The notes beneath the pieces were generated by a model that had not been told where the DNA came from, searched no databases, and was given only the letters and a program-made list of their open reading frames with translations. From an uncultured archaeon (GTDB lineage Archaea; Asgardarchaeota; Thorarchaeia; Thorarchaeales; Thorarchaeaceae), in assembly GCA_964590575.1 (NCBI GenBank), contig CAZPWM010000005.1:1-63001 (forward strand): a DNA stretch of 63,001 nucleotides, written 5' to 3'. Of this stretch, positions 12,996 to 30,778 are shown one piece after another (position 1 is the stretch's first letter; the number at the start of each line of letters is the position of its first letter). The position numbers and the translations under genes are program-made.

Positions 12996-13128
12996 TAAAT
13001 GATGCACCTTGGCATTTTGTTTCAATTCGTAAGCACCTTAAAGCAGTTACCTTTCCTCTTGCAAAAGCCATATCGAAGGCAATCCTTTTCTTGGTTTTGA
13101 ATTGTTGTGCACAAGTCAGGTGCAAGGT

Positions 13129-14184: not shown

Positions 14185-14477
14185 ATATTTCCTTGGTTTC
14201 TTCCACTTGTAGAACTCAGTTCCTTTCCAATAAGAGCTGACCAGATAACAGTGTAGAAACTCGCAAGTGAACAGAATATTACAGCTTCAATAGGCATTTG
14301 TAAATAAACTAAAGCAAGAACTCCAACGGTTTCAACAAGCAGTAGCTGAGCAACTACATCAAAGATTGGTGGTCGCCATTTGAATGGTGGAATCCGGTCT
14401 ACTATTTCTTCATAGATCCATTTGCGTAGGATCTCATCTTGGACCTTTGACCCATCATTCATTGTAAAAGGAACCAA
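14133..14477 (-). CDS. Small membrane protein, possibly truncated
   Basis: Follows the Fe-S gene co-directionally and has two hydrophobic segments; the 3' end overlaps menA antisense and looks non-coding. Confidence 0.4.
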   Translation of the reverse strand: MVPFTMNDGSKVQDEILRKWIYEEIVDRIPPFKWRPPIFDVVAQLLLVETVGVLALVYLQMPIEAVIFCSLASFYTVIWSALIGKELSSTSGRNQGNIYSREAAAASAFFWVMI

Positions 14478-15950: not shown

Positions 15951-17891
15951 ATGGTCCTGAAGCAAAAGCCAGAAAAGAAACTCGAAGAGATTTTTGGAGA
16001 CCGCCTAATTACACAGAAGCATGAACTGGTTCTTTTTGGACAGGACGTTGGGTCTCTTCCAAAACAGGTTGGTTGGCTCATGAATACAAAACCTGATGCC
16101 ATCGTACAGCCCATAGCTTCCGAGGAGATTCAAGCACTTTATGGTGTTGCGAGAGAATTCAAAGTACCGTTAGTACCTCGTGCTGCTGGGACATCGGGAT
16201 ATGGTGGTGCGATACCCCGAAAGGGTGGCGTAATTGTTGATATGCGCCGCATGGACAAGATACTCGAGGTTGACAGCGAGAATTTGACAGTCACGGTTGA
16301 GCCGGGGATTTCTTGGGCCAATCTTCAGTTCGAATTGAACAGAAAAGGATTGGACACTAGATGCTACCCTTCGTCAGGTCTTTCAGCCACGGTAGGCGGA
16401 TGGGTGGCTCAAGGTGGGGATGGCATAGGGTCTCTCAAGTATGGCAACATCAACAAGAATGTTATCAAACTCGAAGTCGTACTACCTGACGGAAAACTTG
16501 TCAAAACAAAAGACATTGATCTATTCTGCGATACAGAAGGAATTCTTGGAATTATAACCAAGATCACCCTCAAGATAAAACCACTCAATCCTATGAAGGT
16601 GATAGTTTCAAGCTTCGGAGAAAACTATCAGATGGTCCTAGCAATCGAGAAGATTCTCGAAGACGGTCCACTCCCATATACCATCAAGTTTGAGGAGTCA
16701 AAATACACCGACCTGAAGAAAGCAATCTGGGAGGGTGAAAAACCATTCCCAATTCCAGCTCATCACGGGTCTTTGATGGTGGTTTATGAAGGTGATGAGG
16801 AAGAGATAGAGGAAGGGATTAGAGTTGTCAAAGAAGTCACCGAAATGTATCGTGGAGTTGTCTATGGTGATGATGTTGCTGAGCATGAATGGCACGAGCG
16901 TTACTATCCAATGAAGATCAAGAAGAAAGGACCAACACTCGTCGTTGGTCAAGCCTTCGCTCCCCTAGAGAATCTTGCTGCTATACTTGATGATTTTCAG
17001 TTCGAGCAAGCATCAGCGAAAGCGGGCATTGATGGTTACGTTAACTCCAAGAGCGCGGTCACAATGATGGGCTACTTCCTAGAGGATGAACGAAGAATGT
17101 TCTACATGTTCTCATGGGCCCAGAGCTTTGTCATTTTTAAAATCGCGCAACGTCATGGAGGACACGTTCACTCAACTGGAATCTGGTTTGCAAATTACGC
17201 TTCGCAATACTTCGGAAAACAGAGACTTGCTCGAATAAGGGCTGCAAAGCTCACGTGGGATAGGCAGGAGATATCTAATCCCGGTAAAGTCTTTGCTTAT
17301 TGGTTGCCATTCATACTCAAAATCGGCAAGTACTTTCTTTGGATATTCTATGACCTATTCAGAAACGGGTTCGGTAGAATTGCTCCAATCCTTCTGAAAT
17401 GGCTTCAGAATGTACCACCACTAAAGTGGGTCTTAAGATGGGGTCGAGCTCACAGCCCATGGCCTATGCAGTATGGCATTGGCTGTTGCATGGTTGATGG
17501 TGCAGCAGGAATTGCACCCCGTTGGGACTTTGAGCGATTCGGAATGCTTCCACTCTTCGGTCCAAGACAGACTGATGTTCTATGGATCTCAGGTTCATTG
17601 ACCAAGAAGATGGCACCAAGACTCAGACGTATCTACGAACAGATGCCGGAACCTAAGTTCGTCATCGCATTCGGTCAATGCGTTGCCTCTGGAGGTCTCT
17701 TCTGGGAAGGATATTCCTTGGCGACTCCTCCAGACAAGATCGTGCCTGTGGACGTTTATTTGCCGGGATGCCCACCAAAGCCTGCTGACTTCATACGAGC
17801 GCATCTCATCCTACAAAACAAGATTCGTGCAGGTACAACTCACTGGCAACAGAAATACGAGAACCAAGATGCAATGGGGATGATGCAGTAA
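15951..17891 (+). CDS. nuoB: Fusion of an FAD-binding oxidoreductase (GlcD/D-lactate dehydrogenase-like, aa 1-~445) and complex I subunit NuoB (aa ~490-646)
   Basis: N-terminal PDAIVQP, PRAAGTSGYGG, VEPG, PSS..ATVGG, EGILGIITK, NPGK. C-terminal WGRAHSPWP, GCC, PRQTD, RRIYEQMPEPKFVIAFGQCVASGG, VDVYLPGCPP. Confidence 0.92.
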   Translation: MVLKQKPEKKLEEIFGDRLITQKHELVLFGQDVGSLPKQVGWLMNTKPDAIVQPIASEEIQALYGVAREFKVPLVPRAAGTSGYGGAIPRKGGVIVDMRRMDKILEVDSENLTVTVEPGISWANLQFELNRKGLDTRCYPSSGLSATVGGWVAQGGDGIGSLKYGNINKNVIKLEVVLPDGKLVKTKDIDLFCDTEGILGIITKITLKIKPLNPMKVIVSSFGENYQMVLAIEKILEDGPLPYTIKFEESKYTDLKKAIWEGEKPFPIPAHHGSLMVVYEGDEEEIEEGIRVVKEVTEMYRGVVYGDDVAEHEWHERYYPMKIKKKGPTLVVGQAFAPLENLAAILDDFQFEQASAKAGIDGYVNSKSAVTMMGYFLEDERRMFYMFSWAQSFVIFKIAQRHGGHVHSTGIWFANYASQYFGKQRLARIRAAKLTWDRQEISNPGKVFAYWLPFILKIGKYFLWIFYDLFRNGFGRIAPILLKWLQNVPPLKWVLRWGRAHSPWPMQYGIGCCMVDGAAGIAPRWDFERFGMLPLFGPRQTDVLWISGSLTKKMAPRLRRIYEQMPEPKFVIAFGQCVASGGLFWEGYSLATPPDKIVPVDVYLPGCPPKPADFIRAHLILQNKIRAGTTHWQQKYENQDAMGMMQ

Positions 17892-18451
17892 TGTCGCTCA
17901 GGCAAGATAGTGATCCATACTGCATGCTCTTTCTTGGCTTAGTCATACTTACAGCTTTTATCTTCAACTTTGTCTATCTTGGTTTCGTGGCTCCACCATC
18001 CGCGGCCTTGGCTGTCGCTGGTTCATTCACACTAATCGGAGGTATGTCCATTCTCTTAGTCTTCTTCTTAATCGGGTACTTCAGGCCTGAGAAAGGAAAA
18101 GGAAAGAATCTGATGATGGCACTCTCCGTTGTTGTAGGATTCTTCTTTGTTGTATTTGTTGACCAATTTGCTTTAGCAGTACCTATTGCAGGATCAACAA
18201 TGTATCTGTCATTTTGGGGTCTAGGAGGATCTATTCTCACAGCAGCTGGTTTTGCCATGATGCACAACCAAGAAGAAAGCTACTCACCGGGTATCTTAGA
18301 CACAAAATCTTTGCATTATGGTCCGGAACCTGAACCTGAGCCTGAAGCAGATACCCCGACTGAAACCGAGGCTGTAGAACTCACCGCTGAGGAAACTACT
18401 GTGGAAGATGAAACACCTAGTGAACCAGCTTCCGATGCTGGAAACGAGTAA
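17891..18451 (+). CDS. 4-TM membrane protein with acidic C-terminal tail
   Basis: TAATG stop/start overlap with the fusion gene; four hydrophobic segments; EPEPEPE acidic tail. Confidence 0.75.
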   Translation: MSLRQDSDPYCMLFLGLVILTAFIFNFVYLGFVAPPSAALAVAGSFTLIGGMSILLVFFLIGYFRPEKGKGKNLMMALSVVVGFFFVVFVDQFALAVPIAGSTMYLSFWGLGGSILTAAGFAMMHNQEESYSPGILDTKSLHYGPEPEPEPEADTPTETEAVELTAEETTVEDETPSEPASDAGNE

Positions 18452-18461
18452 GGTTGATTTC

Positions 18462-18827
18462 TCACTCGTAGAGCCAGTTGAACGCAGCAAATGCAATTAA
18501 GAGTCCAAATGCCATCCATGCAAATAGAATAATTCCCATGATAAGATCATACATGGTGAAGATTAGATATGCATGAATTCCACCTAGGATTCCAGTCATC
18601 ATAGTCAATGCAACTCTGCTGGAACGTGTTTTAGCTGCGGCGAATCCAAATGCCGTCGCTACAAGGAGCAGTCCACCTAAAACAAGTATCAAACGGAAGA
18701 GTATACTAACGACTAAAACTGTTGTATTCATGATATACCAAAAGTATGCTCCGACTAGAGCCATTCCAATTAACAGAGCAAGATAATAGAAGAATGTTCC
18801 TTCTTCGCCACGAGCCAAATGAATCAC
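18462..18827 (-). CDS. Small 4-TM membrane protein
   Basis: 121 aa, almost wholly hydrophobic; fills the gap between the fusion operon and nuoA. Confidence 0.7.
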   Translation of the reverse strand: MIHLARGEEGTFFYYLALLIGMALVGAYFWYIMNTTVLVVSILFRLILVLGGLLLVATAFGFAAAKTRSSRVALTMMTGILGGIHAYLIFTMYDLIMGIILFAWMAFGLLIAFAAFNWLYE

Positions 18828-19188
18828 CTATAATACTGAAACAGTATAACGAGATGTTGCTCGACCCCTCGTGCTATTTAACTTCTTTGAGTCACTGAAA
18901 AAACCCGAAGTGTTTTTATCACGGTACTTTCCTACCGCCGTAAGTTTCAATGTACATGGTTCAGCCAAAATCCATACTATGGAACGTTAAGAAAAGCAAT
19001 CGTTCCGTACGAAAGGGATTATGGTCTGGTCATGTCAACGACGCTTAGCACAGAAGGACCTTGGAACTTATGAAAAGGGAGATTCTCGGCACTAATCATT
19101 TTGTAGGTATCTTCAATAACCGCCGTGTCCGGACCCTTGCCTGCTTTCAACATACTGTCAAAGAAGAATCAGAGGATGGTCTTGCAGC

Positions 19189-19656
19189 ATGATGCAGAGT
19201 GAAAGATTGTTTATGGAATTCATCCCCGTTTTGATATGGGCTTTGTTAGCCATTGTCTTGGTTGTAGTGATGCTGCTTGCATCATGGGTACTGCGTCCTC
19301 ATGTGTTGCAGAACTCTGAGAAGACTTCGACATATGAGTGTGGGGAGGAACCCATCGGTCCTGCCAGGATATCATACCCCTACAACTACTTCATCTATAC
19401 TGTGCTATTTGTCGTGGTTGATGTATTAGGTGCCTTTCTCTGGCTTCTTACCTCATCAAATATACTGTGGGTTGATGCAACCAAATATGCTGTTGTTTGG
19501 CAAGTGACTGTCTTCATATTGATCATCATGGGGGGTGCTGGGTACGTTATGAAGATGCTCCCACAATCGTTCTTGGATGGCAAAGAAACCCTTGAGGTCT
19601 ATCGTTTGGCCAAAGCTGAGAGGGAACAAGAAAAGCATGTTGCAGGAGGTCATTGA
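19189..19656 (+). CDS. nuoA: Complex I subunit A
   Basis: KTSTYECGEEP, FVVVDV; three TMs. Confidence 0.92.
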   Translation: MMQSERLFMEFIPVLIWALLAIVLVVVMLLASWVLRPHVLQNSEKTSTYECGEEPIGPARISYPYNYFIYTVLFVVVDVLGAFLWLLTSSNILWVDATKYAVVWQVTVFILIIMGGAGYVMKMLPQSFLDGKETLEVYRLAKAEREQEKHVAGGH

Positions 19657-20303
19657 AGATGCAGGGTATCGAAGCAGTTTTTGAGTCGATTGAATTTTTC
19701 CTATTAGCAGGCATCGTACTGGTTTTAGCATATCTAGCATTGGAGCACAAAGAGATCGTCTATGCTGCATTCTTCTTTGGTTTCATGGCTTCTTTTGTGG
19801 CTGGATTCTTCCTATTGCTTGAAGCACCTTTCATAGCAGGGATGCAGATAGCAGTTTACACTGGAGGAATTAGTGCACTCATCATCTTTGGAGTATTATT
19901 ATTACCTAGAGCTCAAGATTCATCGCTTGAGACGTTTGCATCACCGCGAAAACGACAAGTTGGATTACTCATAGCCGCATTGGTCATAGCTCTTTCTGGG
20001 TTCCTAGCTTTCATTTTTCCATGGGCTGAATCATTTGACCAATCCTTCATTGAAATCTCAAACAACCTGAATGAACTTGCAATGTGGTTGTGGGCTGACA
20101 ATGGCATCTATGTTCAGATGATTGCTCTAATCATGGTGACTTCTTTAGTCGGAGCGATTGCGCTTCTGAAGATGGACAAGGCTGAACAACTAGCGTCCAT
20201 ACATGGAGAGTTTGGTGTTGAAGCGAAGCCTGAAATCGAAGAACCGGATTCAGTGGTGGAAGAGGAACAACCTGAAGGAGAACCGGAGGAGGTCGATGGA
20301 TAA
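19653..20303 (+). CDS. nuoJ: Complex I subunit J
   Basis: LEAPFIAGMQIAVYTGGI; five TMs; acidic tail. Confidence 0.88.
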   Translation: MKMQGIEAVFESIEFFLLAGIVLVLAYLALEHKEIVYAAFFFGFMASFVAGFFLLLEAPFIAGMQIAVYTGGISALIIFGVLLLPRAQDSSLETFASPRKRQVGLLIAALVIALSGFLAFIFPWAESFDQSFIEISNNLNELAMWLWADNGIYVQMIALIMVTSLVGAIALLKMDKAEQLASIHGEFGVEAKPEIEEPDSVVEEEQPEGEPEEVDG

Positions 20304-20614
20304 TGGTTCCGCTCTCATGGTATCTTATTCTTGCCTTTATGCTGATAGGCTTAGGTAGCTATGGGATGATGGTCAAGAGGAACCTCATCCGAATTCTTAT
20401 AGGCGCTGAAATCATGGGGAACGGGGTTAACATCGCTCTTGTAGCCCTTTCACTCTATAGTCCCGCCTTTACATTCACCGGTCAAGGACTGATTATCCTC
20501 GTCATCTCAGTTGCAGCAGCTCATACTGCCTTGGCTCTAGTTTTGATGCTTATGTACAACCGACGTTATGATTCAGTTGACCTTGGACAACCGATCGAAA
20601 TGGAGGCACCATAA
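20303..20614 (+). CDS. nuoK: Complex I subunit K
   Basis: KRNLIRILIGAEIM, VAAAHTAL; three TMs. Confidence 0.9.
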   Translation: MVPLSWYLILAFMLIGLGSYGMMVKRNLIRILIGAEIMGNGVNIALVALSLYSPAFTFTGQGLIILVISVAAAHTALALVLMLMYNRRYDSVDLGQPIEMEAP

Positions 20615-20615
20615 G

Positions 20616-21119
20616 ATGTCTACAATCGGAAGAGCGGTTATCAACAAGATACCCGAGGTGACATCGAATCCCCTAGGTGATAACAAGATTGAGCTTGTTG
20701 TTCCCAAAGACAAGATTCGAGATGTTGTCAGGATAATAGATGAGGAACTCCCAGATGCGATGCCGGAGTCAGTTTTTGGAATAGACCTCGAGAATGATCA
20801 ATACGAGCTCATCTACATCTTCTGGTCATATACTAATCGTACATTGGTCCAACTCCGAGTTTCCCTCGCTGGCGAAACTCCTGAAATTGAGAGTACATGC
20901 GATATCTTCCCTGGTCTGGAATGGCATGAGAGAGAGGCCCGAGAGATGTTTGGCATCGAGTTCAAGAATCATCCTGATCCACGACTCTTCCTACTGCCCG
21001 ATGAGTTGGATGGAGCATACCCACTCCGCAAGAGATTCCAGACTGACCAAAGCAGATTGAATGAAACTGGTATCACTCCGCCAAAACCACGACCCAAAGA
21101 GGGAGGTGAAGACAAGTGA
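20616..21119 (+). CDS. nuoC: Complex I subunit C
   Basis: WHEREAREMFGIEFKNHPDPRLFLLP...YPLRK. ATG 20616 directly follows the nuoK stop (track 20568). Confidence 0.92.
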   Translation: MSTIGRAVINKIPEVTSNPLGDNKIELVVPKDKIRDVVRIIDEELPDAMPESVFGIDLENDQYELIYIFWSYTNRTLVQLRVSLAGETPEIESTCDIFPGLEWHEREAREMFGIEFKNHPDPRLFLLPDELDGAYPLRKRFQTDQSRLNETGITPPKPRPKEGGEDK

Positions 21120-22252
21120 GTCCCGACATTCTTGATGAAGCAATGGAGATCTGGTTTGGCCCTCAACACGTTTCTGCTCATGGTTGGGCAACCAAATTGA
21201 CATTGGTCGGTGACTATGTGGTTGAGTGTGACCCAAATGCAGGTTACTTCCACCGCTCCGCTGAGAAAGTCCTTGAGTACAAGAACTTTAGACAGGGTGC
21301 ACTTGTATTAGAAAGAATGTGTATGCTTGAGGCATTCTTAGCTGAGTACCCCTATGTTGCAGCGGTGGAGAAAATTGCAGAACTCGAGGTGCCAGAACGC
21401 GCAAAGGTCATGCGAACCATCATGATGGAGATGTCCCGTCTTCACAGCATTCAGTTCTGGTGGGGTCAGTTCAACGCAGAGCTTGGATTTTTCACAATGG
21501 CTCTCTGGCCCTGGGTTGACCGAGAATACTCACTTGATGCCTTTGAAGAGCTAACAGGGTCACGACACACTGTTTCATACTCTACTCCAGGTGGTGTGAA
21601 ATACGATTTCACCGAGAAGTTCATGAAACAACTTAACCGTGCCATCGATCGCTTTGAGGATAGACTGCCCAAATTCAGGGATATGCAAATGGGTAGTCCC
21701 ACTTTTAGAGCAAGAACCGAGAATATCGGCCTATACGATGTCAAACAGGGTCTCAAATGGGGATTGAGTGGTCCCCCTATCAAAGCCTGCGGTGTCCCAA
21801 TGGACCTGAGAAAGGATGACCCCGATTCAAACCTTGCGTACGACATGGTGGACTGGGAAGTGCCCATAACAGAGAATCGTGAACATCCGGGTCAGAGCGA
21901 CGCCCTTGATAGGATGGAGCAACGATTTGCGGAAGCTGAAACTGCTTGTGAGATTATCAAACAGCTGATACCTCAGATTCCAGAAGGACCGATAATTGAT
22001 CCTAAGGCTCGCGCCAAAGCAAATAGACTTCCTGAAGGGGAAGCATACGCCAGAGTGGAGGGCACACGAGGTATCACAACACTGTGGCTCAAGACTCAAG
22101 ACAAAGCGCAGACCGCGTATCGAGCAAAGATACGTGGACCTTGTATCGCCTCATACTATGCATTGAAGGACTTAGTGCCTGGCTCGAAGTTTGCAGACTT
22201 CATTGTAATATTTGGAAGCTTAGATCCATATCCAGGGTGGTGGGATCGCTGA
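21116..22252 (+). CDS. nuoD: Complex I subunit D (no NiFe site)
   Basis: GPQHVSAHG, GYFHRSAEK, ELTGSR, EGTRG, YRAKIRGP; C-terminal SLDPYPGWWDR lacks CxxC. Confidence 0.92.
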   Translation: MSPDILDEAMEIWFGPQHVSAHGWATKLTLVGDYVVECDPNAGYFHRSAEKVLEYKNFRQGALVLERMCMLEAFLAEYPYVAAVEKIAELEVPERAKVMRTIMMEMSRLHSIQFWWGQFNAELGFFTMALWPWVDREYSLDAFEELTGSRHTVSYSTPGGVKYDFTEKFMKQLNRAIDRFEDRLPKFRDMQMGSPTFRARTENIGLYDVKQGLKWGLSGPPIKACGVPMDLRKDDPDSNLAYDMVDWEVPITENREHPGQSDALDRMEQRFAEAETACEIIKQLIPQIPEGPIIDPKARAKANRLPEGEAYARVEGTRGITTLWLKTQDKAQTAYRAKIRGPCIASYYALKDLVPGSKFADFIVIFGSLDPYPGWWDR

Positions 22253-22263
22253 TGGGAGGTGTC

Positions 22264-23403
22264 ATGTTGCAATTCGACTTCTTTGCATGGCTTGCTGGGA
22301 TTCCAACCTGGCTTGAAAGCGTGCTTTTCTGGATATGGGGTATAGTCAAAGGCATCATCCTGTGGATCTGGGACGTTATTGTATGGGTTTGGGGACTTGT
22401 ATTTGCTCCTGACAACTTCATGTTTCTCTTCCGTGCTGTCCTGTTCCCCGGTCTGATATTCGTGGTTCTAACTCTGATTTGGGCCGTTTGGTTCACTAGA
22501 AAATTATGGGCTAGAATCCAAGATAGACGTGGTCCTGTACATATGGGTAAGTATGGTGGACTCCAATTGTTTGCTGACGCGATCAAACTAATCGCAAAGG
22601 AAACTATCATTCCTGACAAAGCGAAGAGATGGATGTTTAGGTTCCTACCAGGATTTCTCCTCATCATGGTACTCTTGCCATTCTGCTTCATACCTTGGGA
22701 TTTTGATTATTGGTTCATTGCAGACCTTTCAGTTAGTCTAGTACTGGTCTTCGCCTTTCTCACTGCAGTTCCTGTTATTGCTCTATTGGCTGGTTGGGTC
22801 AGTGGTTCAAAGTACTCACTCATTGGTGGATTTAGGGCGGCCAACAATCAGTTTGCAGCTGAGATTCCTATGATTATCTCAACAATCGGACCTGCTCTGC
22901 TGGCAGGTTCTCTGAGTCTCATGGGCATAGCACAAGCGCAGACTAATGTCTGGTTTGCAATATTGTTGCCAATCAACCTAGCAACTTTCCTAGTTGCAGC
23001 AATTGCATCTGTGGGTATATTTCCATTCGATGCTCCTGTTGCAGACTCTGAGATCATCTTCGGATGGAGAACAGAGTTCACAGGCATCCACTTCACACTC
23101 ACGTATTTTGCAGAGTTTGCAGAACAGATGTTATACTCCGCACTCATAGTTGCCCTGTTCTTAGGAGGACCGATTGGGTTCCCATTCCTACCGGGTGCAG
23201 TGAACTTCATCATCAAGTTCCTGATAACGTTCTTCTTCTTTGTACTTGTGAGTTCATCATTCCAAAGACTCAGACAAGACCAGATTGTCCACTACTGCTG
23301 GAAATATCTACTACCACTTGCGCTCTTGAATGTCATAATCGCAATGTTCGCGATAGTCTACCTTCCTGGACTGGCAGCATTATTCCCCTTAGGAGGCGGT
23401 TAA
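22264..23403 (+). CDS. nuoH: Complex I subunit H
   Basis: RKLWARIQDRRGP, LQLFADAIKLIAKE, SKYSLIGGFRA, PFD, RLRQDQ..CWKYLLP. ATG 22264 follows GGAGGT (alternative 22252). Confidence 0.93.
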   Translation: MLQFDFFAWLAGIPTWLESVLFWIWGIVKGIILWIWDVIVWVWGLVFAPDNFMFLFRAVLFPGLIFVVLTLIWAVWFTRKLWARIQDRRGPVHMGKYGGLQLFADAIKLIAKETIIPDKAKRWMFRFLPGFLLIMVLLPFCFIPWDFDYWFIADLSVSLVLVFAFLTAVPVIALLAGWVSGSKYSLIGGFRAANNQFAAEIPMIISTIGPALLAGSLSLMGIAQAQTNVWFAILLPINLATFLVAAIASVGIFPFDAPVADSEIIFGWRTEFTGIHFTLTYFAEFAEQMLYSALIVALFLGGPIGFPFLPGAVNFIIKFLITFFFFVLVSSSFQRLRQDQIVHYCWKYLLPLALLNVIIAMFAIVYLPGLAALFPLGGG

Positions 23404-23406
23404 ACG

Positions 23407-23838
23407 ATGGGTTTCTTCAGTGTATTAGGTGATTGCTTCCAGATTTTGAAACATACATTCAGACAGGTCTTCAAGAGACCCTTCACATACTTCTTCCCAT
23501 TCGAAGATAGAATCTATCCTGAAAGGACAAGGGGTAGACATATTCATGTGCGTCAGAATTGTACAGCCTGTGCACAGTGTGTCCGCGCATGTCCAGTGGT
23601 AGCGATCCGTATGGACAAGGAAGATAAGATGTACGAGAAAGACTGTGCTCTGACCTTTGACTACACACGCTGTATCTTCTGTGGTCTATGTGTTGAGGCT
23701 TGTAGATTCGAAGCTCTATTCCACACTCCTGTTGTTGACCTGAGTGAAGGTGACCGGGAAGACCTCATCTACGGTCCTGACAAAATTGAAACCCTTGATA
23801 GAGACCCGTTAAAGTGGCGCGGAAGGAGGTTCCGTTAG
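23407..23838 (+). CDS. nuoI: Complex I subunit I (2x[4Fe-4S])
   Basis: PERTRGRH, CTACAQCVRACP, CIFCGLCVEAC. Confidence 0.93.
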   Translation: MGFFSVLGDCFQILKHTFRQVFKRPFTYFFPFEDRIYPERTRGRHIHVRQNCTACAQCVRACPVVAIRMDKEDKMYEKDCALTFDYTRCIFCGLCVEACRFEALFHTPVVDLSEGDREDLIYGPDKIETLDRDPLKWRGRRFR

Positions 23839-25371
23839 ATGCAGATCACAAACCTCCCGTTTGCTGCCCTATCATTAGCAGTGCTCTTCTTTGGAGCACT
23901 CATGATCTATGTGTTCAAAGACAGTCTTCAGAAATCTGCAGGAAGAGTTGCAGTTGGAATTTCAGGTGTAGCGTCCCTATTGATGGTCTATCCTTTCTTT
24001 CAAGTATTCAACGGGTCTACATACGAAGAGTATGCGACCTGGTCCAGCCTTCTCGAGCAATTCGGTCTAAGGCTTGATGGAATTGCCTTTCCAATCACAT
24101 TTGCAGTTGTCGTGTTAGGTTTTCTATCAGTTGTTTACGCTATTGGTTATACAGAGCATAGTGAGAATAAACCAACCTTCTTCGCTAACACACTCTTCTT
24201 CCTAATGGGAATGCAATGGGTTACCTTAGCAACGAACCTGATCGAATTTTTCATAGCTTGGGAGCTCATGTTGGTTCCCGCTTATTTCCTGATTCTATTC
24301 TGGGGACTACCTGATACTCGAAAGCGAACAGCTATGAAGTTCTGGCTCTACACTCAATCTGGTGCAGTCTGTATCTTGGTTGGCTTTGGAATTCTATATT
24401 CCCTTACAGGGTCATTCGACTTAGCCTTAATTCAACCCGGGATTGACTCACTTGCTCTCGGCGCAATACTACCCGGTCTTGGTATCACTGTTGGCACGAT
24501 ATTAAAATTAGTCTTCATTCTCCTTGCCGCAGGATTCCTTGTGAAGATGGCTGTCTTCCCCATTCATTGGTGGCTCCCACCGGTTCATGCTGAGGCTCCT
24601 ACTCCTATCTCTGTCTTGCTTTCAGGTGCAATGATTGAGACCGGTGCCTACGCGTTGGTGCGGTTTGGATCTCTTACCTTGATAGATGCTGCAATTCAAC
24701 TATCGTTCTTTGTTGCAGCCTTGGGAGTCATCACCATGTTTTATGGTGGTTTCATGGCTCTTGCACAGATTGACATCAAGAGGCTCCTTGCATATTCATC
24801 GGTATCTCAGATGGGATACGTACTGTTTGCCTTGGGTGTGTACTCACCCATGGGTGCTGCAGGTGGAATGTTCCATTTGATCAATCATGCTTTCTCAAAG
24901 GGTCTGTTGTTTATGACCGCAGGTGCTGTGATCCATCAGACTGGCCTACGTGACATAACTAAGATGGGCGGTCTCTCGAACAAGATGCCAATCACAGCTT
25001 TTGCTGCTGCTATTGGAATGATGAGCATTGCAGGAAGTCCTCCTCTCTCTGGATTCGCAAGTGAGTGGATGATGTTCCTCGGAGGGTTCGAGCGAGCGGT
25101 CGTAGGTGGTGCAATAGCAAGTCTACCATTCCTTATTCTAACTATCATAGCAGCATCAAGTTCAATTCTCAGCGCAGGTTATATGATGCGCTTTTTCTGG
25201 AAGGTCTTCCTTGGCCCTCATCCAGATGAGTTGGAAGATGTGAAAGAGAGTTCCAACTCTATGACCATCCCTATGATCATACTTGGAATCCTCATTGTAA
25301 TCTTTGGAATATTCCCAGGACTGGCACTGGATGTCATTGTCCCGGCGGTTCAAGGAATCGTTGCTCCCTGA
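23839..25371 (+). CDS. Additional antiporter-like subunit (NuoM/HyfB/MrpD-like)
   Basis: FFIAWELM, VKMAVFPIHWWLPPVHAEAPT, KRLLAYSS, NHAFSKGLLF, GFASEW. Confidence 0.88.
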   Translation: MQITNLPFAALSLAVLFFGALMIYVFKDSLQKSAGRVAVGISGVASLLMVYPFFQVFNGSTYEEYATWSSLLEQFGLRLDGIAFPITFAVVVLGFLSVVYAIGYTEHSENKPTFFANTLFFLMGMQWVTLATNLIEFFIAWELMLVPAYFLILFWGLPDTRKRTAMKFWLYTQSGAVCILVGFGILYSLTGSFDLALIQPGIDSLALGAILPGLGITVGTILKLVFILLAAGFLVKMAVFPIHWWLPPVHAEAPTPISVLLSGAMIETGAYALVRFGSLTLIDAAIQLSFFVAALGVITMFYGGFMALAQIDIKRLLAYSSVSQMGYVLFALGVYSPMGAAGGMFHLINHAFSKGLLFMTAGAVIHQTGLRDITKMGGLSNKMPITAFAAAIGMMSIAGSPPLSGFASEWMMFLGGFERAVVGGAIASLPFLILTIIAASSSILSAGYMMRFFWKVFLGPHPDELEDVKESSNSMTIPMIILGILIVIFGIFPGLALDVIVPAVQGIVAP

Positions 25372-25381
25372 GGTGATTTAG

Positions 25382-27637
25382 ATGCTGTTCGGTCTACCTT
25401 ACTATCTAATCCTCGTCATCCCCTTGGCTGGTTCACTGCTAGTCCCAGTTGTTGGACGCTACAGTGAGAAGCTCAGGGACTGGACACCTGCAATCTTCAT
25501 GGGCATCGCTATGGTCCTCTGTTGGTCTCTTCTCCTAGAGATTGATCATGCCACTCAGCCTACTAGCTGGGTATGGATAGAGGCACTAGGAATAGAGTTC
25601 AGTGTTCTACTTGACCCACTGTCTGTCATAATGGCTGTTCTAGCAAGCACACTTTGTTTCCTCATCTATGTATACAGCACGGAATACATTGCTGATGATG
25701 AAGACCGCAATCGGTTCTTCTTCCTGATGCTCGCTTTTGGTGGTGGCATGCTTACACTCGTGTTGAGCAACAACTTGTTAATCGGGTTTATTGGATGGGA
25801 AATCATGGGCTTCTGCTCCTATGGCCTCATTGGCTTCTGGAACGACAAGAGGAATCCTCCTGAGGAGGACCCAACTGGCTATGAGCAGAACAATCCATTG
25901 CTCCAGTTCGAGACCGAAGGCGCATACAACAGCTACTGTGGAACAAAAGCCTTCATCGTCACACGGATTGGTGACGCCTTCATGCTGGGTGGCATCCTTC
26001 TCCTCTTCATGTTCACGGGCTCCTTCCTGTTCACAGACATGGCTGATCCTGTACATTTGTCGAACAACTGGTGGGAGAACATGGCATCCGTAGGGATTCT
26101 GATTCCTGCACTGCTCCTCATCTTCATGGGTGCCATCGGAAAATCCGGTCAAGCTCCCCTACAGGTGTGGCTTCCTGAAGCCATGGCAGGTCCGACTCCG
26201 GTTTCGGCTTTGATTCACGCTGCAACCATGGTGAAGGCAGGTGTTTACATCACCGCCCGATTCTTAATCACAATAGTAAGTGCGTCAGGCATCCACGCAG
26301 AGATTGGACCAGGTCCTCCAAGCTTCACATCAGCTCAAATCTTTGGCTTTGAGGCTGCGCTGACCTTCTTCATCATCGTGGCTATTATTGGTGGAATTAC
26401 TGCTATTATGACTGCAACAATGGGAATGGTTTCCAATGAGTTGAAACAGATTCTAGCATTCTCGACGCTGTCGCAGCTTGGATACATGATTCTAGCACTG
26501 GGAGTTGGAGGAGTTCTCCAAGCAAATCACCTTCACTATGACCAGGCGTATCTGAGTGGTGTCTTACACGTTGTATCACATGGAGCCTTCAAAGCACTCC
26601 TGTTTCTTGCCTCCGGTGGTGTGATACATGCACTGCATACGAAGTACATCTCAAAGATGGGCGGACTCCGGAAACATATGCGGAAGACGTTCATTGTCAT
26701 GTGGATAGGCGTCTTGGCCTTAGCAGGCATCCCACCCTTCTCAGGCTTCTGGTCAAAAGACTCAATCATTGAGTACACCTATGAACTTGCTGCACACTGG
26801 ACAAATCCAATTGGATGGATTCTATTCATCTTTGCAATTCTAGCAGCAGCCTGCACCATATTCTACAGCTTCAGATTGATGGGCATCACATTCTATGGAC
26901 CCCCACAGGGTGAATCTCATGACTCTCATGAAACTCACGAGGATGAAACTGAGTCTCACGCTGAGGAAGAACATCACGATGACCATCATCAGACACCACA
27001 CGATCCTGGTCCAGCTATGATGGTGCCGCTCTACATACTCGCTGCATTCACGGTCATTGCTTTTGCTGTGTTTCCAATCCTTCAGAACATTGTACTGAAT
27101 GAGAGCAATACATGGATAGAGACCATGACTGAAATGATCGTGGTCAAACTCACTATGCCTGGACTTGTTCCCTTCGTTATCACTTTGGGCGCTCTGGCTA
27201 TTGGTGGGATTCCGGGTTACATCATTTACATCAAGAATTCTAACAAACCAAACACAATCATTGGTGAGAAAGGCTTCAGTCGCAAGATCTACACTTTCCT
27301 CAGACACAGGTGGTACATCAACGAAGGATATCATTGGATTCTTGGAAAATTCCTCAACTTTGCTGCCATGTGGCGAGTCCGAGTGGATGACAAAATCATT
27401 GATGGCATTGACTTCAAGTCTGCTGATGCAGCGATAACCATCTCCACAAAGGTTCGCTGGTTTGATGACAATGTTGTCGATGGGTTTGCTGAGAGCATCT
27501 CAACCCAGAGTGTCAAAGCCTCAGAAACCAGCTTAGCTGAGACGCAGACAGGACGAATCAATGACTACGTTAGCGTGGTGATATTCGGTATAGGAATACT
27601 GGTTATCCTCGCACTGGTTTCATTGGGAGTGATATAG
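25382..27637 (+). CDS. nuoL: Complex I subunit L
   Basis: GWEIMG..SYGLIGFW, KAFIVTRIGD, KSGQAPLQVWLPEAMAGPTPVSALIHAATMVKAGVY, HGAFKALLFL, GFWSKD; lateral helix ending QTGRINDY. Confidence 0.95.
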   Translation: MLFGLPYYLILVIPLAGSLLVPVVGRYSEKLRDWTPAIFMGIAMVLCWSLLLEIDHATQPTSWVWIEALGIEFSVLLDPLSVIMAVLASTLCFLIYVYSTEYIADDEDRNRFFFLMLAFGGGMLTLVLSNNLLIGFIGWEIMGFCSYGLIGFWNDKRNPPEEDPTGYEQNNPLLQFETEGAYNSYCGTKAFIVTRIGDAFMLGGILLLFMFTGSFLFTDMADPVHLSNNWWENMASVGILIPALLLIFMGAIGKSGQAPLQVWLPEAMAGPTPVSALIHAATMVKAGVYITARFLITIVSASGIHAEIGPGPPSFTSAQIFGFEAALTFFIIVAIIGGITAIMTATMGMVSNELKQILAFSTLSQLGYMILALGVGGVLQANHLHYDQAYLSGVLHVVSHGAFKALLFLASGGVIHALHTKYISKMGGLRKHMRKTFIVMWIGVLALAGIPPFSGFWSKDSIIEYTYELAAHWTNPIGWILFIFAILAAACTIFYSFRLMGITFYGPPQGESHDSHETHEDETESHAEEEHHDDHHQTPHDPGPAMMVPLYILAAFTVIAFAVFPILQNIVLNESNTWIETMTEMIVVKLTMPGLVPFVITLGALAIGGIPGYIIYIKNSNKPNTIIGEKGFSRKIYTFLRHRWYINEGYHWILGKFLNFAAMWRVRVDDKIIDGIDFKSADAAITISTKVRWFDDNVVDGFAESISTQSVKASETSLAETQTGRINDYVSVVIFGIGILVILALVSLGVI

Positions 27638-27638
27638 A

Positions 27639-29243
27639 ATGCAATTAGACTTCGCCTTAAACATCCTGAACTCATTACCCTTTGGACCGCTAGGGTTCAT
27701 GCTGATCTTACCACTAGCTGCTGCATTAATAGCATACTTTGCAGGAAAAGGAGCCAGAGCTATAACACTACTAGTCACTGCTGTTGAACTTGGACTATCA
27801 CTCCTGTTGGTTCTAGCGGTTGACACAAGTGAGATTCTTGCTACAGACTCAGTTGCTGGTATGCAGTTTGTCGAATACTTTGTTATGGGAACGATTCCTG
27901 TTGGAGCCACTGATACAGTGTTCCAGTTTATCCTTGGAGTTGACGGACTCTCTGCAATAATGCTTCTACTCTCGAACCTCGTTGTGTTCATTGCAGCAAT
28001 CAGCTCAAACCACATTCACAAGTCTGAAGGTTTCTACTACTCACTCTTCATGCTTCTACAGGTAGGTCTCATGGGCGTGTTCATGTCCATGGATTTGATC
28101 GGATTTTTCATTTTCTGGGAACTGGTTCTCATCCCGATGTTCTTCATCATCGGAAGATGGGGCGAGGAGGGCTGTCAGCATGCGGCTGTGAAGTTCTTTA
28201 TCTATACCCATCTTGGCTCAGCAGTGATGCTGGTCGCATTCTTCATGATGTACCTCATCGCGGGAGATGCAACTGGCACATATACGTTCGCTATGATTGG
28301 CGCTGATGGACTGAGAAGCACTCTTCCAACACTTGCTCCAATGATTCAGATTGGTTTTGCACTAGCCATATTCATGGGTGCCGGAGTCAAGCTACCTGTC
28401 TGGCCGCTACACAACTGGCTTCCATGGGCGCACGTCAAAGCTCCCACGCCTGGTTCAGTCATACTTGCTGGCATCCTTCTGAAGATGGGCGGTTACACAT
28501 TTATCCGTCTTGGGCTCTGGTTGGTGCCAAGTGCATTTGCACGATTGAGCATCCCGTTTGCAGCATTAGCCATCTTCACCTGTATTTATGCTGCATTCAC
28601 AGCAATGGCTCAGACAGATTTGAAGAGCCTCGTCGCATATACCTCAATCAATCACATGTCCTGGGTACTTCTTGGTGTAGCTGTAGCAGCATTTGGTATT
28701 GGTCTCGATCCACTTGTCGCAGCTAATGTGGCTTACATCAATGCAGCAAACTTGGCACTTCAAGGAGCGATATTCATGATGTTCAGTCATGGAACTATCA
28801 TCTCTGTGATGTTTATCATGGCTGGTCAACTCAAGTACTCAGCTGGCACGCGTGAGATTCCTGATATTAAAGGTCTCATGACTAAAGCGCCGCGTCTCTC
28901 AGCAATCTTGATACTTGCCGCCTTTGCGGCCTTTGGTCTGCCGGGATTCAGCGGCTTCATAGCAGAAGCACTGGTCATCTTTGGGTCCGTTGTAATCTAC
29001 CTCTGGGCTGCAATCATCACATTTGGAATATTCATAACAGTGGGCTATGTCCTATGGATGTTGAACCGAATTGTGTTCAGCGACCCTGACCCCGAGAAGG
29101 AAGTTTCAGAGGCACCTTGGACTGACCTCATCGCACCTATTCTGATGATGATACCAGTCATCCTCTTGGGTATATGGCCTGACCTTGTCCTTAACTTCAC
29201 ACAAGCAGTCGTCACTTTCATCATTGGAGGTGTTGCACCATGA
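27639..29243 (+). CDS. nuoM: Complex I subunit M
   Basis: GVDGLS, FWELVLIPM, KFFIYT, VKLPVWPLHNWLPWAHVKAPT, LAGILLKMGGY, SHG, GFIAE. Confidence 0.94.
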   Translation: MQLDFALNILNSLPFGPLGFMLILPLAAALIAYFAGKGARAITLLVTAVELGLSLLLVLAVDTSEILATDSVAGMQFVEYFVMGTIPVGATDTVFQFILGVDGLSAIMLLLSNLVVFIAAISSNHIHKSEGFYYSLFMLLQVGLMGVFMSMDLIGFFIFWELVLIPMFFIIGRWGEEGCQHAAVKFFIYTHLGSAVMLVAFFMMYLIAGDATGTYTFAMIGADGLRSTLPTLAPMIQIGFALAIFMGAGVKLPVWPLHNWLPWAHVKAPTPGSVILAGILLKMGGYTFIRLGLWLVPSAFARLSIPFAALAIFTCIYAAFTAMAQTDLKSLVAYTSINHMSWVLLGVAVAAFGIGLDPLVAANVAYINAANLALQGAIFMMFSHGTIISVMFIMAGQLKYSAGTREIPDIKGLMTKAPRLSAILILAAFAAFGLPGFSGFIAEALVIFGSVVIYLWAAIITFGIFITVGYVLWMLNRIVFSDPDPEKEVSEAPWTDLIAPILMMIPVILLGIWPDLVLNFTQAVVTFIIGGVAP

Positions 29244-30778
29244 TGCTACAACTAGACCTTATTGCAGATTCAATCCGTGGGATTCTTTCCCCTATTACCA
29301 ATTGGTTACTGACAATCATACCCGCAGGGTGGATCATGTCATTGCCTGCTCTAACATTGATTGTCTTCGCTATATTGGCACTTGCAGTAGGTCTCAAGTA
29401 CAACCCACTTGGTCTAAGCTTTATCGGTCTCATAATTGCTGGTCTTGAGATGTTGATGTTTGAACCCGCAGTTCTTGGGGCAGAATCTTTCGGAGGTCAG
29501 TTTGTAAGAGACCCTATGGCTGACTTCTTCATCTACATCATTCTCATAGTCGGCTTTCTAGTCTTGATGTCTTCTACTCTATATGGCGGGGATAAAGGTC
29601 CATACAACTTCCTGCTGCTAATTTCCTTTTCAGGAGCAATCTGGGTTGTAATGGCGACCGACTTGGTTGGACTGTTCTTGGCTTGGGAGATGATGTCAAC
29701 ACCGACATACATACTTGTTGCCCTTGGCCCTGCCCGAGAGGCAATTGATGGTGCAACGAAGTACTTCGTCATGGGCCTTCTTGCTACTATGTTGATGTTG
29801 TTTGGAATTGCCCTTGTATACGGTGTTACTGGAACAACTGACCTTGTCCTCGTGGCATCTGCAGTAGAGGGCATCTGGGGTATGTTCGCTACAACTCCAA
29901 ACGCTGCCTATACAATCCTTCTAGCTTTGGTGTTATTCATTGTTTCATTCGGATTTAAGGTAGGTGTGTTCCCTGGATGGCAATGGGTGCCAGATGCATA
30001 TGCCAGTGCAGATGGAAGCGTCACTGCATATCTTGCAGGCGGATCCAAGAAGACAGGTGTGGGTGCTCTTATGAGAATCCTCGTCATTGGGTTCGTAGTA
30101 GCTCAGACTCAATGGGTGTTTCTCATCGTTGGAGTCGCAATCCTCACCATGATTATTGGAAATGTTCTAGCTCTCGCACAGAAGGATATCATGAGGATGT
30201 TGGCATATAGTAGCATTGCTATGATGGGCTATCTCTTCATTGGAATTGCCTCTGCCATGAATCCCGTCGATACTGCAAGTATTGCTGCATATAATCTGGG
30301 CGTTGGTGCAGCACTTTTCCATGCTTTCACACACGCATTGATGAAGACATCTGCATTCATTCTGGTGTGGGCGCTTTCAATCAAGCTCGCAAAACGGATA
30401 ACGTACGATGATCTAGCTGGGCTAAGCAAACGTGCACCCTTTGCTGCGGGTATGCTGACTATTCTAATGCTATCATTAGCTGGTATGCCACTCACGGTTG
30501 GGTTCTGGTCAAAACTGATTCTCTTCCAGAGTGCAGTCGTTGCTGGAATGTGGTGGCTCGCACTCATAGGTCTCTTGAACTCGGTGTTTTCACTCGGTTA
30601 CTATTTGCGTGTGTTAAGATACTCCTACATGATGGATGCTCCAGATGATTCAAGAATCAAACTGCCAACTATTCCCTTTGTTGCAGTTACAATCTGTGTC
30701 ATCGCAGTGATTGCCCTCTTCCTCTTTCCAAATATTATACTAGACTATGCATTCGCAGCTGTACCCGCAGTACCATAG
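29240..30778 (+). CDS. nuoN: Complex I subunit N
   Basis: WEMMS, KYFVMG, FKVGVFP..WVPDAY, SKK, RMLAYSSI, LAGMPLTVGFWSK, YYLRV. Confidence 0.93.
   Translation: MMLQLDLIADSIRGILSPITNWLLTIIPAGWIMSLPALTLIVFAILALAVGLKYNPLGLSFIGLIIAGLEMLMFEPAVLGAESFGGQFVRDPMADFFIYIILIVGFLVLMSSTLYGGDKGPYNFLLLISFSGAIWVVMATDLVGLFLAWEMMSTPTYILVALGPAREAIDGATKYFVMGLLATMLMLFGIALVYGVTGTTDLVLVASAVEGIWGMFATTPNAAYTILLALVLFIVSFGFKVGVFPGWQWVPDAYASADGSVTAYLAGGSKKTGVGALMRILVIGFVVAQTQWVFLIVGVAILTMIIGNVLALAQKDIMRMLAYSSIAMMGYLFIGIASAMNPVDTASIAAYNLGVGAALFHAFTHALMKTSAFILVWALSIKLAKRITYDDLAGLSKRAPFAAGMLTILMLSLAGMPLTVGFWSKLILFQSAVVAGMWWLALIGLLNSVFSLGYYLRVLRYSYMMDAPDDSRIKLPTIPFVAVTICVIAVIALFLFPNIILDYAFAAVPAVP

Follow-up and report, generated by a model that had tools for sequence, protein, structure and literature searches.

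We analyzed a 63,001-nt stretch of DNA, hereafter the window, from an uncultured archaeon of the family Thorarchaeaceae (Asgardarchaeota; Thorarchaeia; Thorarchaeales; assembly GCA_964590575.1, contig CAZPWM010000005.1, bases 1–63,001) and found a complex I-like gene cluster whose NuoB subunit is encoded only as the C-terminal part of a 646-aa flavoprotein. The genome examined comprises 3.40 Mb in 194 contigs and is 91.45% complete, the window being its contig C5 (1–63001). Downstream of the fusion gene come two small membrane-protein genes, TM186 and TM121, followed by the operon nuoA-J-K-C-D-H-I-M'-L-M-N at 19189–30778. Upstream lie a gene for an iron-sulfur protein resembling HdrD and GlcF and genes of prenyl metabolism, including a MenA-type prenyltransferase (Table 1).

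The fusion is a single open reading frame (ORF) of three parts: a flavin adenine dinucleotide (FAD) domain, an amphipathic linker and a complete NuoB. The initial annotation of the window, made by a model from the sequence alone, had described such a frame with intact ligands for the iron-sulfur cluster N2 and had named three domains to search for. All three were matched in the one frame, FAD_binding_4 at residues 48–186 (E 9.7e-39), FAD-oxidase_C at 216–447 (6.1e-9) and Oxidored_q6 at 524–617 (2.2e-22), and two NCBIfam NuoB models exceeded their cut-offs over residues 493–630 (NF005012, 174.3 against 116; TIGR01957, 165.6 against 142.7 bits). All four N2 cysteines are present, tandem pair included, and the domain aligns with NdhK and PSST over 136 residues, being nearest to these (151 bits) and much less so to MbsJ/MbhJ (104 bits). 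The linker contains neither a stop nor an ATG, as had been claimed; its length, put at ~50 aa, is better given as ~44 residues (447–490), and solved NuoB chains align from residue 491 on. Among residues 447–506, the only start-type codons in frame are a TTG at 452 and an ATG at 506, the latter lying after the conserved SPWP of NuoB.

Table 1. Features around the flavoprotein–NuoB fusion (positions in the window), and clusters of GlcD-like paralogs in related genomes (positions in their own contigs)
Feature	Position	Strand	Evidence or remark
Geranylgeranyl reductase-family flavoprotein (prenyl-chain saturation)	10760–11950	+	GGR_cat 6.4e-19, FAD_binding_3
Polyprenyl diphosphate synthase	11961–13025	-	Pfam polyprenyl_synt 5e-57
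MenA-type 1,4-dihydroxy-2-naphthoate polyprenyltransferase (UbiA family)	13102–14184	+	TIGR00751 133.1 bits, cut-off 102.15
orf114, two hydrophobic segments	14133–14477	-	No Pfam/NCBIfam match; 41–72% identity at same place in relatives
HdrD/GlcF/GlpC-like iron-sulfur protein (2x[4Fe-4S] ferredoxin domain and two CCG domains)	14510–15736	-	Start at Met 15736
Fusion ORF, 646 aa	15951–17891	+	Flavoprotein, linker and NuoB in single frame
Fusion residues 1–446, VAO/GlcD-type FAD domain, ending at NPGK (443–446)	15951–17288	+	Pfam, profile, fold; pLDDT mostly >90
Fusion residues 447–490, aromatic/basic amphipathic linker	17289–17420	+	Predicted helices 452–472, 474–486
Fusion residues 491–646 and stop, complete NuoB	17421–17891	+	N2 ligands C512, C513, C577, C607
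TM186, ~4 hydrophobic segments, acidic tail	17891–18451	+	Start overlaps fusion stop; 34–86% in relatives
TM121, small membrane protein	18462–18827	-	No family match; 28–84% in relatives
nuoA	19189–19656	+	Oxidored_q4 1.8e-17
nuoJ	19653–20303	+	Oxidored_q3 1.1e-20
nuoK	20303–20614	+	Oxidored_q2 5.5e-20
nuoC, directly after nuoK	20568–21119	+	Complex1_30kDa 1e-29
nuoD	21116–22252	+	Complex1_49kDa 2.5e-58; aligned to 2fug_4, 6u8y_L
nuoH (longest ORF; true start probably ~22252)	22084–23403	+	NADHdh 7.9e-86; NCBIfam NuoH
nuoI (2x[4Fe-4S])	23407–23838	+	Fer4, two stretches; TIGR01971 8.3e-24
nuoM', extra fourth antiporter-like subunit	23839–25371	+	Proton_antipo_M 5.4e-69; TIGR01972 306 bits, cut-off 263.8
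nuoL, long form, 751 aa	25382–27637	+	TIGR01974 458.9 bits, cut-off 407.5
nuoM	27639–29243	+	TIGR01972 399.9 bits
nuoN	29240–30778	+	TIGR01770 272 bits, below cut-off 332.6; NuoN is best family
GlcD-like paralog clusters	G002:C1:119141–132200; G005:C7:25624–36508; G006:C36:15961–29060; G010:C3:2839–13725 (L108)

To study the conservation of the fusion, we surveyed the GTDB family (f1; 86 genomes in 16 genera) and found a NuoB ortholog at a minimum of 81% identity in 59 genomes. The ortholog lies in an open frame of 614–719 aa in 52 of these, in five it lies in a frame of 266–540 aa that extends up through the linker and is ended by a contig end or, in one genome (G360), a single frameshift, and in two it begins at a contig start. 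The junction is thus in one frame in 57 of the 59 ortholog-bearing genomes, and none of the 59 has a free-standing ortholog. Among 48 named loci, 38 cover all 646 residues, one of them on a closed 3.16-Mb chromosome, and almost all relatives from named records carry the label Candidatus Thorarchaeota (Asgard archaea). Exactly 646 aa followed by a stop were found in 14 of the 16 orthologs listed, the remaining two being trimmed by one to two residues by the reference coordinates, and the linker has the identical length in every listed NPGK-containing frame that runs into NuoB. The exceptions to continuity from NPGK through the linker to NuoB are one copy ended by a contig end and the two genomes of genus g27, considered below.

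Two apparent exceptions were examined and rejected. In G360, a candidate for an unfused relative, a single frame change occurs just before NPGK, and the linker and NuoB share one frame; the frameshift (L105, G360:C5:92800–95400) is probably an assembly error. In L058, a candidate for a relative without NuoB, a gap of 100 N (2717–2816) replaces residues 382–625 and the flanks are in frame.

Substitution patterns and independent assemblies gave the same picture. In 105 pairwise comparisons of 15 sequences, the median proportion of nonsynonymous differences (pN) was 0.17 in the FAD domain, 0.10 in the linker and 0.09 in NuoB, while synonymous sites were saturated (median pS 0.81–0.85); judged by these values, the linker is under strong purifying selection. 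We compared a 1701-nt stretch with Logan contigs from other studies, the whole length being spanned by no single listed contig. Contigs of two other studies match across the junction free of indels: those of run X4 span 17090–17406 and 17387–18086 at zero differences, and those of run X1 tile the region. A joint in X4 recorded as "skips 85", with a 21-nt side, is probably noise or another organism. Coverage by run X10 starts at ~17541, RNA run X18 covers 9 of 30 bins, and runs with small word shares were not used.

Among 1.84 billion cluster representatives, the full-length architecture falls into one cluster at 50% identity. A word-based search for long NuoB-containing proteins found 47 clusters at 90% identity that share the three Pfam domains, drawn from NCBI, JGI, ENA and Logan, and no other flavoprotein–NuoB design; the source annotations for the fusion clusters read "NuoB" or "hypothetical". 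A 533-aa protein, P0088, has repeated NdhK-like segments and is not a flavoprotein fusion. Two fusions bear other lineage labels: L031, recorded as Hermodarchaeota, is 82% identical to the window protein and nests among Thorarchaeota sequences in the tree, and P0164, recorded as Hodarchaeota, has 90% identity over the NuoB part. Both labels are probably inconsistencies of labelling.

We considered whether the frame could be an artefact of a misassembled or chimeric contig, or belong to a pseudogene in decay. The window comes from a metagenome-assembled genome of 194 contigs, one relative has a frameshift (G360) and another an N gap (L058). Against this, the 646-aa frame recurs in 52 genomes of the family, on one closed chromosome and among 47 clusters at 90% identity, the independent contigs are identical across the junction, the sequence is under purifying selection, and the G360 frameshift lies before NPGK. 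No misjoin or stop in the linker, either of which the initial annotation had named as fatal to its claim, was seen, and an artefact can be practically dismissed. The analyses confirm that the fusion is genuine, conserved and selected.

The fusion was found in 12 of the 16 genera (g1, g15–g25), which also have an orthologous NuoH (63–96% identity) within a few kilobases. One genome (G025) of a sister family in the same order has the operon nuoA(-), J, K, B, C, D, H, I, M', L, M, N, with a free 152-aa NuoB containing the tandem-Cys motif between nuoK and nuoC, from which it follows that nuoB was taken out of the K–C slot in the window lineage. The comparison shows that, in an ancestor of most Thorarchaeota of the family, nuoB left this slot and became the C-terminal domain of the flavoprotein. 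The extra subunit nuoM' is present in the sister family, too.

Genus g27 (two genomes) encodes a 498- to 499-aa flavoprotein that keeps the amphipathic tail up to a PPLKW motif and then stops. Its left flank is syntenic with the window (MutS, geranylgeranyl reductase, polyprenyl synthase, MenA, HdrD-like protein and flavoprotein), and so is its right flank, an ADP-forming acetyl-CoA synthetase-like gene. A stretch of ~17.7 kb in the window, which starts with the NuoB domain, includes nuoN and ends with the gene preceding the synthetase, has no counterpart in g27, and no NuoH ortholog was found in this genus at E 1e-30 or better. We inferred a quick maximum likelihood tree of 52 rows (45 fused sequences, 2 unfused and 5 long-branch outgroups, omitting identical domain sequences and pieces shorter than 430 residues), in which g27 is sister to the 45 fused sequences on a long branch, with a Shimodaira–Hasegawa approximate likelihood ratio support of 88 for the fused clade. 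With g27 placed in this manner, the tree leaves undecided whether its form is a truncation or the ancestral state, that is, whether NuoB and the nuo genes were lost or never present.

Genera g26, g28 and g29, as well as some fusion-bearing congeners, have a different complex whose NuoB-like subunit carries a CxxC motif. In one genome (G010), the large subunit of this second complex has the full set of Ni-Fe ligands and identifies a true group-4 hydrogenase; a scan with PF01058 found no such second complex in the window's genome. Tandem clusters of GlcD-like paralogs of 490–600 aa, some with an insertion between two flavoprotein domains, were observed 15–30 kb from the fusion (Table 1), and in G010 a pair of HdrD-like and GlcD-like genes lies ~3.7 kb upstream of the true group-4 [NiFe] hydrogenase operon. 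The link of flavoprotein/HdrD-like modules to Nuo-like pumps may be broader than the fusion.

Using Pfam and NCBIfam models, we matched the eleven core subunits A, B, C, D, H, I, J, K, L, M and N, with B only within the fusion; the operon itself lacks nuoB and nuoEFG, as the initial annotation had stated. All Fpo-specific models (FpoD, FpoH, FpoC, FpoI and FpoL) scored far below their cut-offs. NuoL has extra segments in comparison with NdhF and Nqo12, among them a His/Asp/Glu-rich insertion at ~517–550 relative to NdhF. For NuoD, the residues of interest are His38 and Tyr87 of Thermus thermophilus Nqo4, which we take to be ligands of the quinone headgroup. The His38 equivalent is kept, Glu replaces Asp139, and the Ni-Fe cysteines are absent.

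Genome wide, Oxidored_q6 (PF01058) was matched at four places, and the fusion is the sole NuoB. The other three were rejected as free NuoB: each is a small subunit of 258–307 aa beside a [NiFe] large subunit, and their ORF translations, with the Ni-Fe Cys motif, place them in two MvhD-G-A-type clusters and one group-3 type. NuoF (PF01512), NuoE (PF01257) and NuoG (PF10588) gave zero matches each in the 91.45%-complete genome, the controls being positive. Free nuoB and nuoEFG were thus not found, in line with the initial annotation, but a check for fpoF returned one FpoF-like gene. Of the two FrhB-family genes in the genome, FdhB (contig C32) adjoins a molybdopterin subunit, and the other stands alone with the FpoF-like architecture Fer4, FrhB_N and FrhB_C on contig C33 (G000:C33:3348–4445; L101 934–2031). 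The latter adjoins a GTP cyclohydrolase II gene and possibly forms a separate F420-type module. No FrhB-family gene was found within the nuo/fusion locus; the C33 protein might nevertheless dock to the complex.

The flavoprotein part has the two-domain fold, FAD_binding_4 plus FAD-oxidase_C, of GlcD and the D-2-hydroxyacid dehydrogenases. Its nearest PDB profiles are mouse LDHD (2.5e-72), LctD (1.4e-71), isopod D-lactate dehydrogenase (1.2e-67) and AGPS (~1e-53), and Foldseek gave TM-scores, normalized to the target, of 0.81–0.86 for the D-lactate dehydrogenases (0.84–0.86 for mouse LDHD) and ~0.7 for AGPS, at 18–24% identity to the nearest solved folds. The catalytic residues tell a different story. 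In mouse LDHD, H398, H405 and E442, within the motifs GH.GDGN.H and GEHG.G, are presumably the metal and substrate ligands (numbering checked against the title "H405A" of entry 8jdb). At these positions, pairwise and profile alignments place Tyr363, Val370 and the segment GGHVHSTG of the window protein, and the consensus of ~40 relatives in the subfamily has no His/His/Glu there. The TIGR00387 glcD model scored 140.4 bits against a cut-off of 567.9, and the YdiJ model 78 bits against a cut-off of 1350, both far short of what is required. The catalytic metal triad being absent, D-lactate-like substrate handling is improbable; from these sequence features, we do not class the protein as a D-lactate or glycolate dehydrogenase, and its substrate is probably not handled like D-lactate. 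The GlcD/D-lactate dehydrogenase identity first given to it thus stands for the fold and fails for the triad and the glcD model, and the proposed organic-acid redox chemistry is, for the same two reasons, unproven. Among the ten closest nonorthologous relatives scanned (36–40% identity), six are fused C-terminally to Fer4_8 and two CCG domains, one carries NrfD, a quinone-interacting membrane domain, at its N-terminus, another has a double FAD domain and the remaining two are stand-alone proteins.

The divergent gene upstream of the fusion encodes the likely partner of the flavoprotein. Its product matched CCG (1.6e-30, two stretches) and Fer4_8 (7e-10), and in 19 sequences the cysteines of the ferredoxin motifs (C18/21/24/31 and C75/78/81/85) and of the CCG domains (C163/198/199/235/238 and C291/327/328/365/368) are invariant. 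Among the models for TfrB, LdhH, GlpC, GlcF, HdrB and DsrK, none named it as an equivalog; the best was TfrB with 161.5 bits against a cut-off of 385, and GlcF reached 63 bits against 333. The gene stands upstream of the fusion in 35 of the 48 loci, most of the others being ended by contig ends and a few having insertions or rearrangements; in g27, it lies directly upstream of the flavoprotein on the same strand. A complex prediction for residues 1–450 of the flavoprotein with this protein gave 0.84, with 0.00 for the best control. Of 80 solved complexes, 58 attain this mark, as do 2 of 110 mismatched pairs; with the custom alignments used here, the counts apply only roughly. The runs had at least 95% of contacts in common and a pLDDT (predicted local distance difference test) of at least 90 for the partner, and the modelled interface sets the partner's ferredoxin domain (13–88) on the FAD domain at 142–145 and the conserved DER at 379–381. 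No solved flavoprotein–CCG complex occurs among the PDB matches of either chain, which gives no sign that the prediction reproduces a known structure; the fused relatives may still have informed the model. Taken together, the HdrD/GlcF-like protein is likely the partner of the flavoprotein and is predicted to bind it; the initial annotation had rightly pointed to this protein.

The linker is predicted by AlphaFold2 to form helices at 452–472 and 474–486, with a further helix at 491–501 (pLDDT ~60–67, compared with mostly >90 in the FAD domain). The first two, aromatic and basic in character, have hydrophobic moments of 0.53 and 0.63 (0.53–0.65 over the three). Its exact length and strong purifying selection suggest a defined geometry. 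In complex I, the N-terminus of NuoB lies at the membrane surface beside NuoH and NuoA, close to where quinone enters and remote from the NuoI end at which donors dock, and N2 is buried at the interface of NuoB and NuoD. The FAD domain would by this comparison sit at the membrane-proximal heel of the complex.

Quinone-tail genes stand beside the module. MenA, the polyprenyl synthase (in the loci with enough flank) and the geranylgeranyl reductase are conserved neighbors across the family, and in g27 they stay with the HdrD-like gene and the tailed flavoprotein though nuo is absent. The acceptor may be a noncanonical or scavenged prenylated carrier, with a quinone suggested by these neighbor genes. 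Three small conserved ORFs of the locus, orf114, TM186 and TM121, may, judged by sequence and conserved position, be additional membrane subunits of the module or its anchors; TM186 has no Pfam or NCBIfam match, and its best Protein Atlas value, 0.86, is below the 0.9 level for a lead.

Bacterial-type MutL and MutS mismatch-repair genes occupy 2085–3884 (-) and 7914–10514 (-), MutS being syntenic in g27. Directly past nuoN on the opposite strand lie a Ras/Roc-family small GTPase (30804–31361, -; Pfam Ras 1.8e-42) and, next to it, a PAS-GAF-PAS histidine kinase (31443–33401, -), both missing, like the nuo operon, in g27. An ORF of 1845 aa is found at 41406–46943 (-).

The model that best accommodates these observations, and to which we give about an even chance, is a carrier-linked dehydrogenase, composed of the flavoprotein and the HdrD-like protein, tethered one to one at the heel of a ferredoxin-dependent pump. 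The two proteins would form a dehydrogenase at the membrane surface in which electrons move from FAD through two [4Fe-4S] clusters to the two noncubane CCG clusters and exchange with a prenylated quinone-type carrier, as in enzymes of the GlcDEF, Dld-II, YdiJ and GlpABC types. Through two short amphipathic helices (447–490), the module would be held at the heel by the NuoB N-terminus, and the NuoEFG-less pump with its four antiporter-like subunits would, most likely, exchange electrons with ferredoxin at NuoI. The outcome would be an obligatory 1:1 supercomplex of two enzymes acting on the same membrane carrier. In one version, the dehydrogenase would reduce the carrier and the pump spend ion-motive force to lift electrons to ferredoxin, which is reverse electron transport; in another, both enzymes would feed the carrier and only the ferredoxin branch would pump. 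The midpoint potentials involved are approximately −190 mV (2-hydroxyacid/2-oxoacid), −74 mV (menaquinone) and −400 to −500 mV (ferredoxin), which makes substrate-driven pumping along the entire chain unlikely and leaves reverse electron transport or parallel feeding of the carrier as plausible; we regard reverse electron transport as a live option.

Several observations weigh against this model. The carrier is in doubt from two sides: at the Tyr87 position of NuoD the window has Met, all 33 orthologs have Met or Leu, and the sister family has Phe; the best PDB match of NuoD is MbsL of the quinone-independent MBS (203 bits, compared with 177 for Nqo4). In the 91%-complete genome, MqnA/D and MenD gave zero matches and MenB only four sub-threshold matches resembling enoyl-CoA hydratases, so the head group for MenA is unaccounted for. 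The flavoprotein has, by its sequence, no assignable substrate, and that ferredoxin feeds NuoI is assumed, there being an FpoF-like gene elsewhere in the genome. The placement of the FAD domain at the heel would follow from general knowledge of complex I structures; AlphaFold2 modelling of the whole fusion gave a pLDDT of 33–76 for the NuoB part and no usable interdomain geometry. Expression has a weak hint in one metatranscriptome contig of 233 nt identical to 16826–17058, for which DNA carry-over is possible.

In the main rival model, the two enzymes would be wired directly. The flavoprotein/HdrD-like module would be the terminal electron output (or input) of the pump, and no free quinone would be needed for electrons to travel between the CCG clusters and either N2 or the former quinone cavity. 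We consider such wiring unlikely, but several findings speak for it: the subunit that is fused bears N2, NuoD is most like MbsL and has no quinone-ligand Tyr, a menaquinone head-group pathway was not found, and the conserved partner is of the HdrD type. The accessible text of PMC6147122 quotes a proposed interaction of an Fpo-like complex with HdrD. By analogy with that proposal for Methanomassiliicoccales, direct wiring would turn the enzyme into an ion-pumping ferredoxin:substrate oxidoreductase, something we likewise find hard to expect. Such a quinone-free enzyme, with a ferredoxin-dependent pump and an output module on the N2 subunit reducing or oxidizing a soluble organic substrate, is an outcome we would not bet on. 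If true, it would be the first hard-wired case of the hypothesized "Fpo-like + HdrD" principle and would define the energy conservation of Thorarchaeota. The loss of the Tyr, however, is older than the fusion, as the sister family has Phe together with a free NuoB. The MenA and prenyl genes remain beside the module in the pump-less g27, which argues that the module has its own acceptor. The attachment runs through the N-terminus of NuoB and amphipathic helices, with N2 buried at the NuoB/NuoD interface in complex I structures, and no model places the CCG clusters near N2.

Complex I could also be only a membrane anchor or assembly scaffold for an independent dehydrogenase, taking the place of a dedicated anchor subunit, with no redox coupling beyond the shared membrane. 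In g27, the flavoprotein works with no Nuo present and retains an amphipathic tail of its own, among relatives NrfD is an example of a different anchor, and peripheral dehydrogenases often require just membrane attachment. Yet nuoB is out of its operon with no free copy, so every pump carries the flavoprotein, which is costly for anchoring, and the exact length and strong purifying selection of the linker suggest a defined geometry; we therefore think a mere anchor distinctly unlikely. What the initial annotation had favored was a module that feeds electrons in, and in its classical form the flavoprotein would replace NuoEFG and send electrons through the NuoI/NuoB clusters to the quinone site, driving pumping. 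NuoEFG are indeed absent, and a covalent bond links the module to the peripheral arm. The attachment is, however, at the N-terminus of NuoB; the docking site of NuoEFG, FpoF or ferredoxin is NuoI. The reach of ~44 partly helical amphipathic residues to the distal NuoI cluster is doubtful, the span of the potentials given above is too small for a pump with four antiporter-like subunits, and the D-lactate-type catalytic triad is absent. We judge this form highly improbable. The claim of a covalent tether between a flavoprotein and the N2-bearing subunit has proved real, conserved and selected; that of an input module found no clear support. The MenA and prenyl genes, the HdrD/GlcF-like partner and the NrfD- or CCG-fused relatives fit a quinone-linked side module better.

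The electron partners of the archaeal 11-subunit, NuoEFG-less complex I have been argued for years from gene neighborhoods, with HdrD for the Fpo-like complexes, ferredoxin and the "complex I-like" enzymes of Asgard archaea as cases in point. For one lineage, the fusion gives a Rosetta-stone answer: the pump must carry the flavoprotein, which recruits an HdrD-type protein, and this in 12 of 16 genera. Whether HdrD/flavoprotein modules couple physically to pumps of the complex I type can now be tested directly, which opens a way into how a widespread but uncultured group of Asgard archaea conserves energy. A warning for annotation follows as well, the 646-aa protein being recorded merely as "NuoB" or "hypothetical".

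Fpo-like complexes and HdrD are reportedly treated by Lang (2015) and the 2M complex I by Chadwick (2018), and Seitz (2016), Liu (2018) and Spang (2019) are said to cover the metabolism of Thorarchaeota and other Asgard archaea. According to the accessible text of Sun et al. 2021 (PMC9723677), Asgard archaea have complex I without NuoEFG, menaquinone genes and many Dld genes adjoining HdrD genes. Such NuoEFG-less Asgard complexes appear likewise in the accessible parts of Appler et al. 2024 (bioRxiv 10.1101/2024.07.04.601786) and Valentin-Alvarado et al. 2024 (PMC11291895); these three sources also describe a hydrogenase-like NuoD in Heimdallarchaeia and Dld beside HdrD genes in Sifarchaeia and Jordarchaeia, and present ferredoxin-dependent ion pumps of the MBS/MBH-like kind as common in Asgard archaea; in the accessible text of the three, no flavoprotein–NuoB fusion is mentioned. 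As the subfamily lacks the triad, the Asgard "Dld" genes related to this flavoprotein (PMC9723677, accessible text) may not be D-lactate dehydrogenases. In PMC9040806, as far as its text was accessible, the "2M" complex I of Nitrospira and relatives has an extra nuoM-like gene and a proposed role in reverse electron transport. The initial annotation knew of no characterized example of the fusion, and the mostly open literature searched, with subscription papers and supplements outside its scope and some sources accessible only in part, held no description of one; a full-text search, likewise with most subscription journals outside its scope, returned no paper with both "Thorarchaeota" and "NuoB". 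The flavoprotein–NuoB arrangement is seemingly undescribed so far.

The nearest solved folds are mouse LDHD (8jdb/8jdc), LctD of Ldh-EtfAB (7qh2_C), isopod D-lactate dehydrogenase (9qgz/9qit) and AGPS (4bby, 5ae1); unlike the LDHD-type folds among them, the fusion has the metal ligands replaced and carries an extra amphipathic C-terminal tail and a NuoB domain. In GlcDEF, Dld-II of Shewanella and YdiJ, the first and last of which we take to be a glycolate oxidase and a D-2-hydroxyglutarate dehydrogenase, a VAO-type FAD domain likewise has a ferredoxin domain and two CCG domains at its side, either on a partner protein or in the same chain, and these are membrane- or quinone-linked systems, as proposed for the module here. 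In contrast to them, the flavoprotein of the window is fused to NuoB and not to its iron-sulfur partner, and the triad is absent.

Among the pumps, the Fpo-like complexes of Methanothrix and Methanomassiliicoccales and the Nuo of Sifarchaeia and Jordarchaeia share the 11-subunit set, the lack of an NADH module and the presumed use of ferredoxin; here, NuoB covalently carries a flavoprotein, nuoB is out of the operon and a fourth antiporter-like subunit is present. The latter, an extra nuoM-like gene, is shared with the "2M" complex I, and the long NuoL (751 aa in the window) adds to the resemblance, but the complex of the window is archaeal and NuoEFG-less, and a NuoB fusion has been reported for none of those complexes. 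The similarity to the MBS/MBH type lies in NuoD, with MbsL as its best match, and some congeners have a true group-4 hydrogenase as a second complex; the window's complex differs from this type in having no Ni-Fe Cys in NuoD, a tandem-Cys NuoB, NuoA and NuoJ, and a membrane arm of the complex I type. Finally, in NuoCD and NuoBCD fusions (NuoB/C/D model NF009808), NuoB is likewise part of a larger polypeptide, but those fusions join core subunits to one another, whereas here the N-terminus of NuoB is joined to an enzyme from outside complex I.

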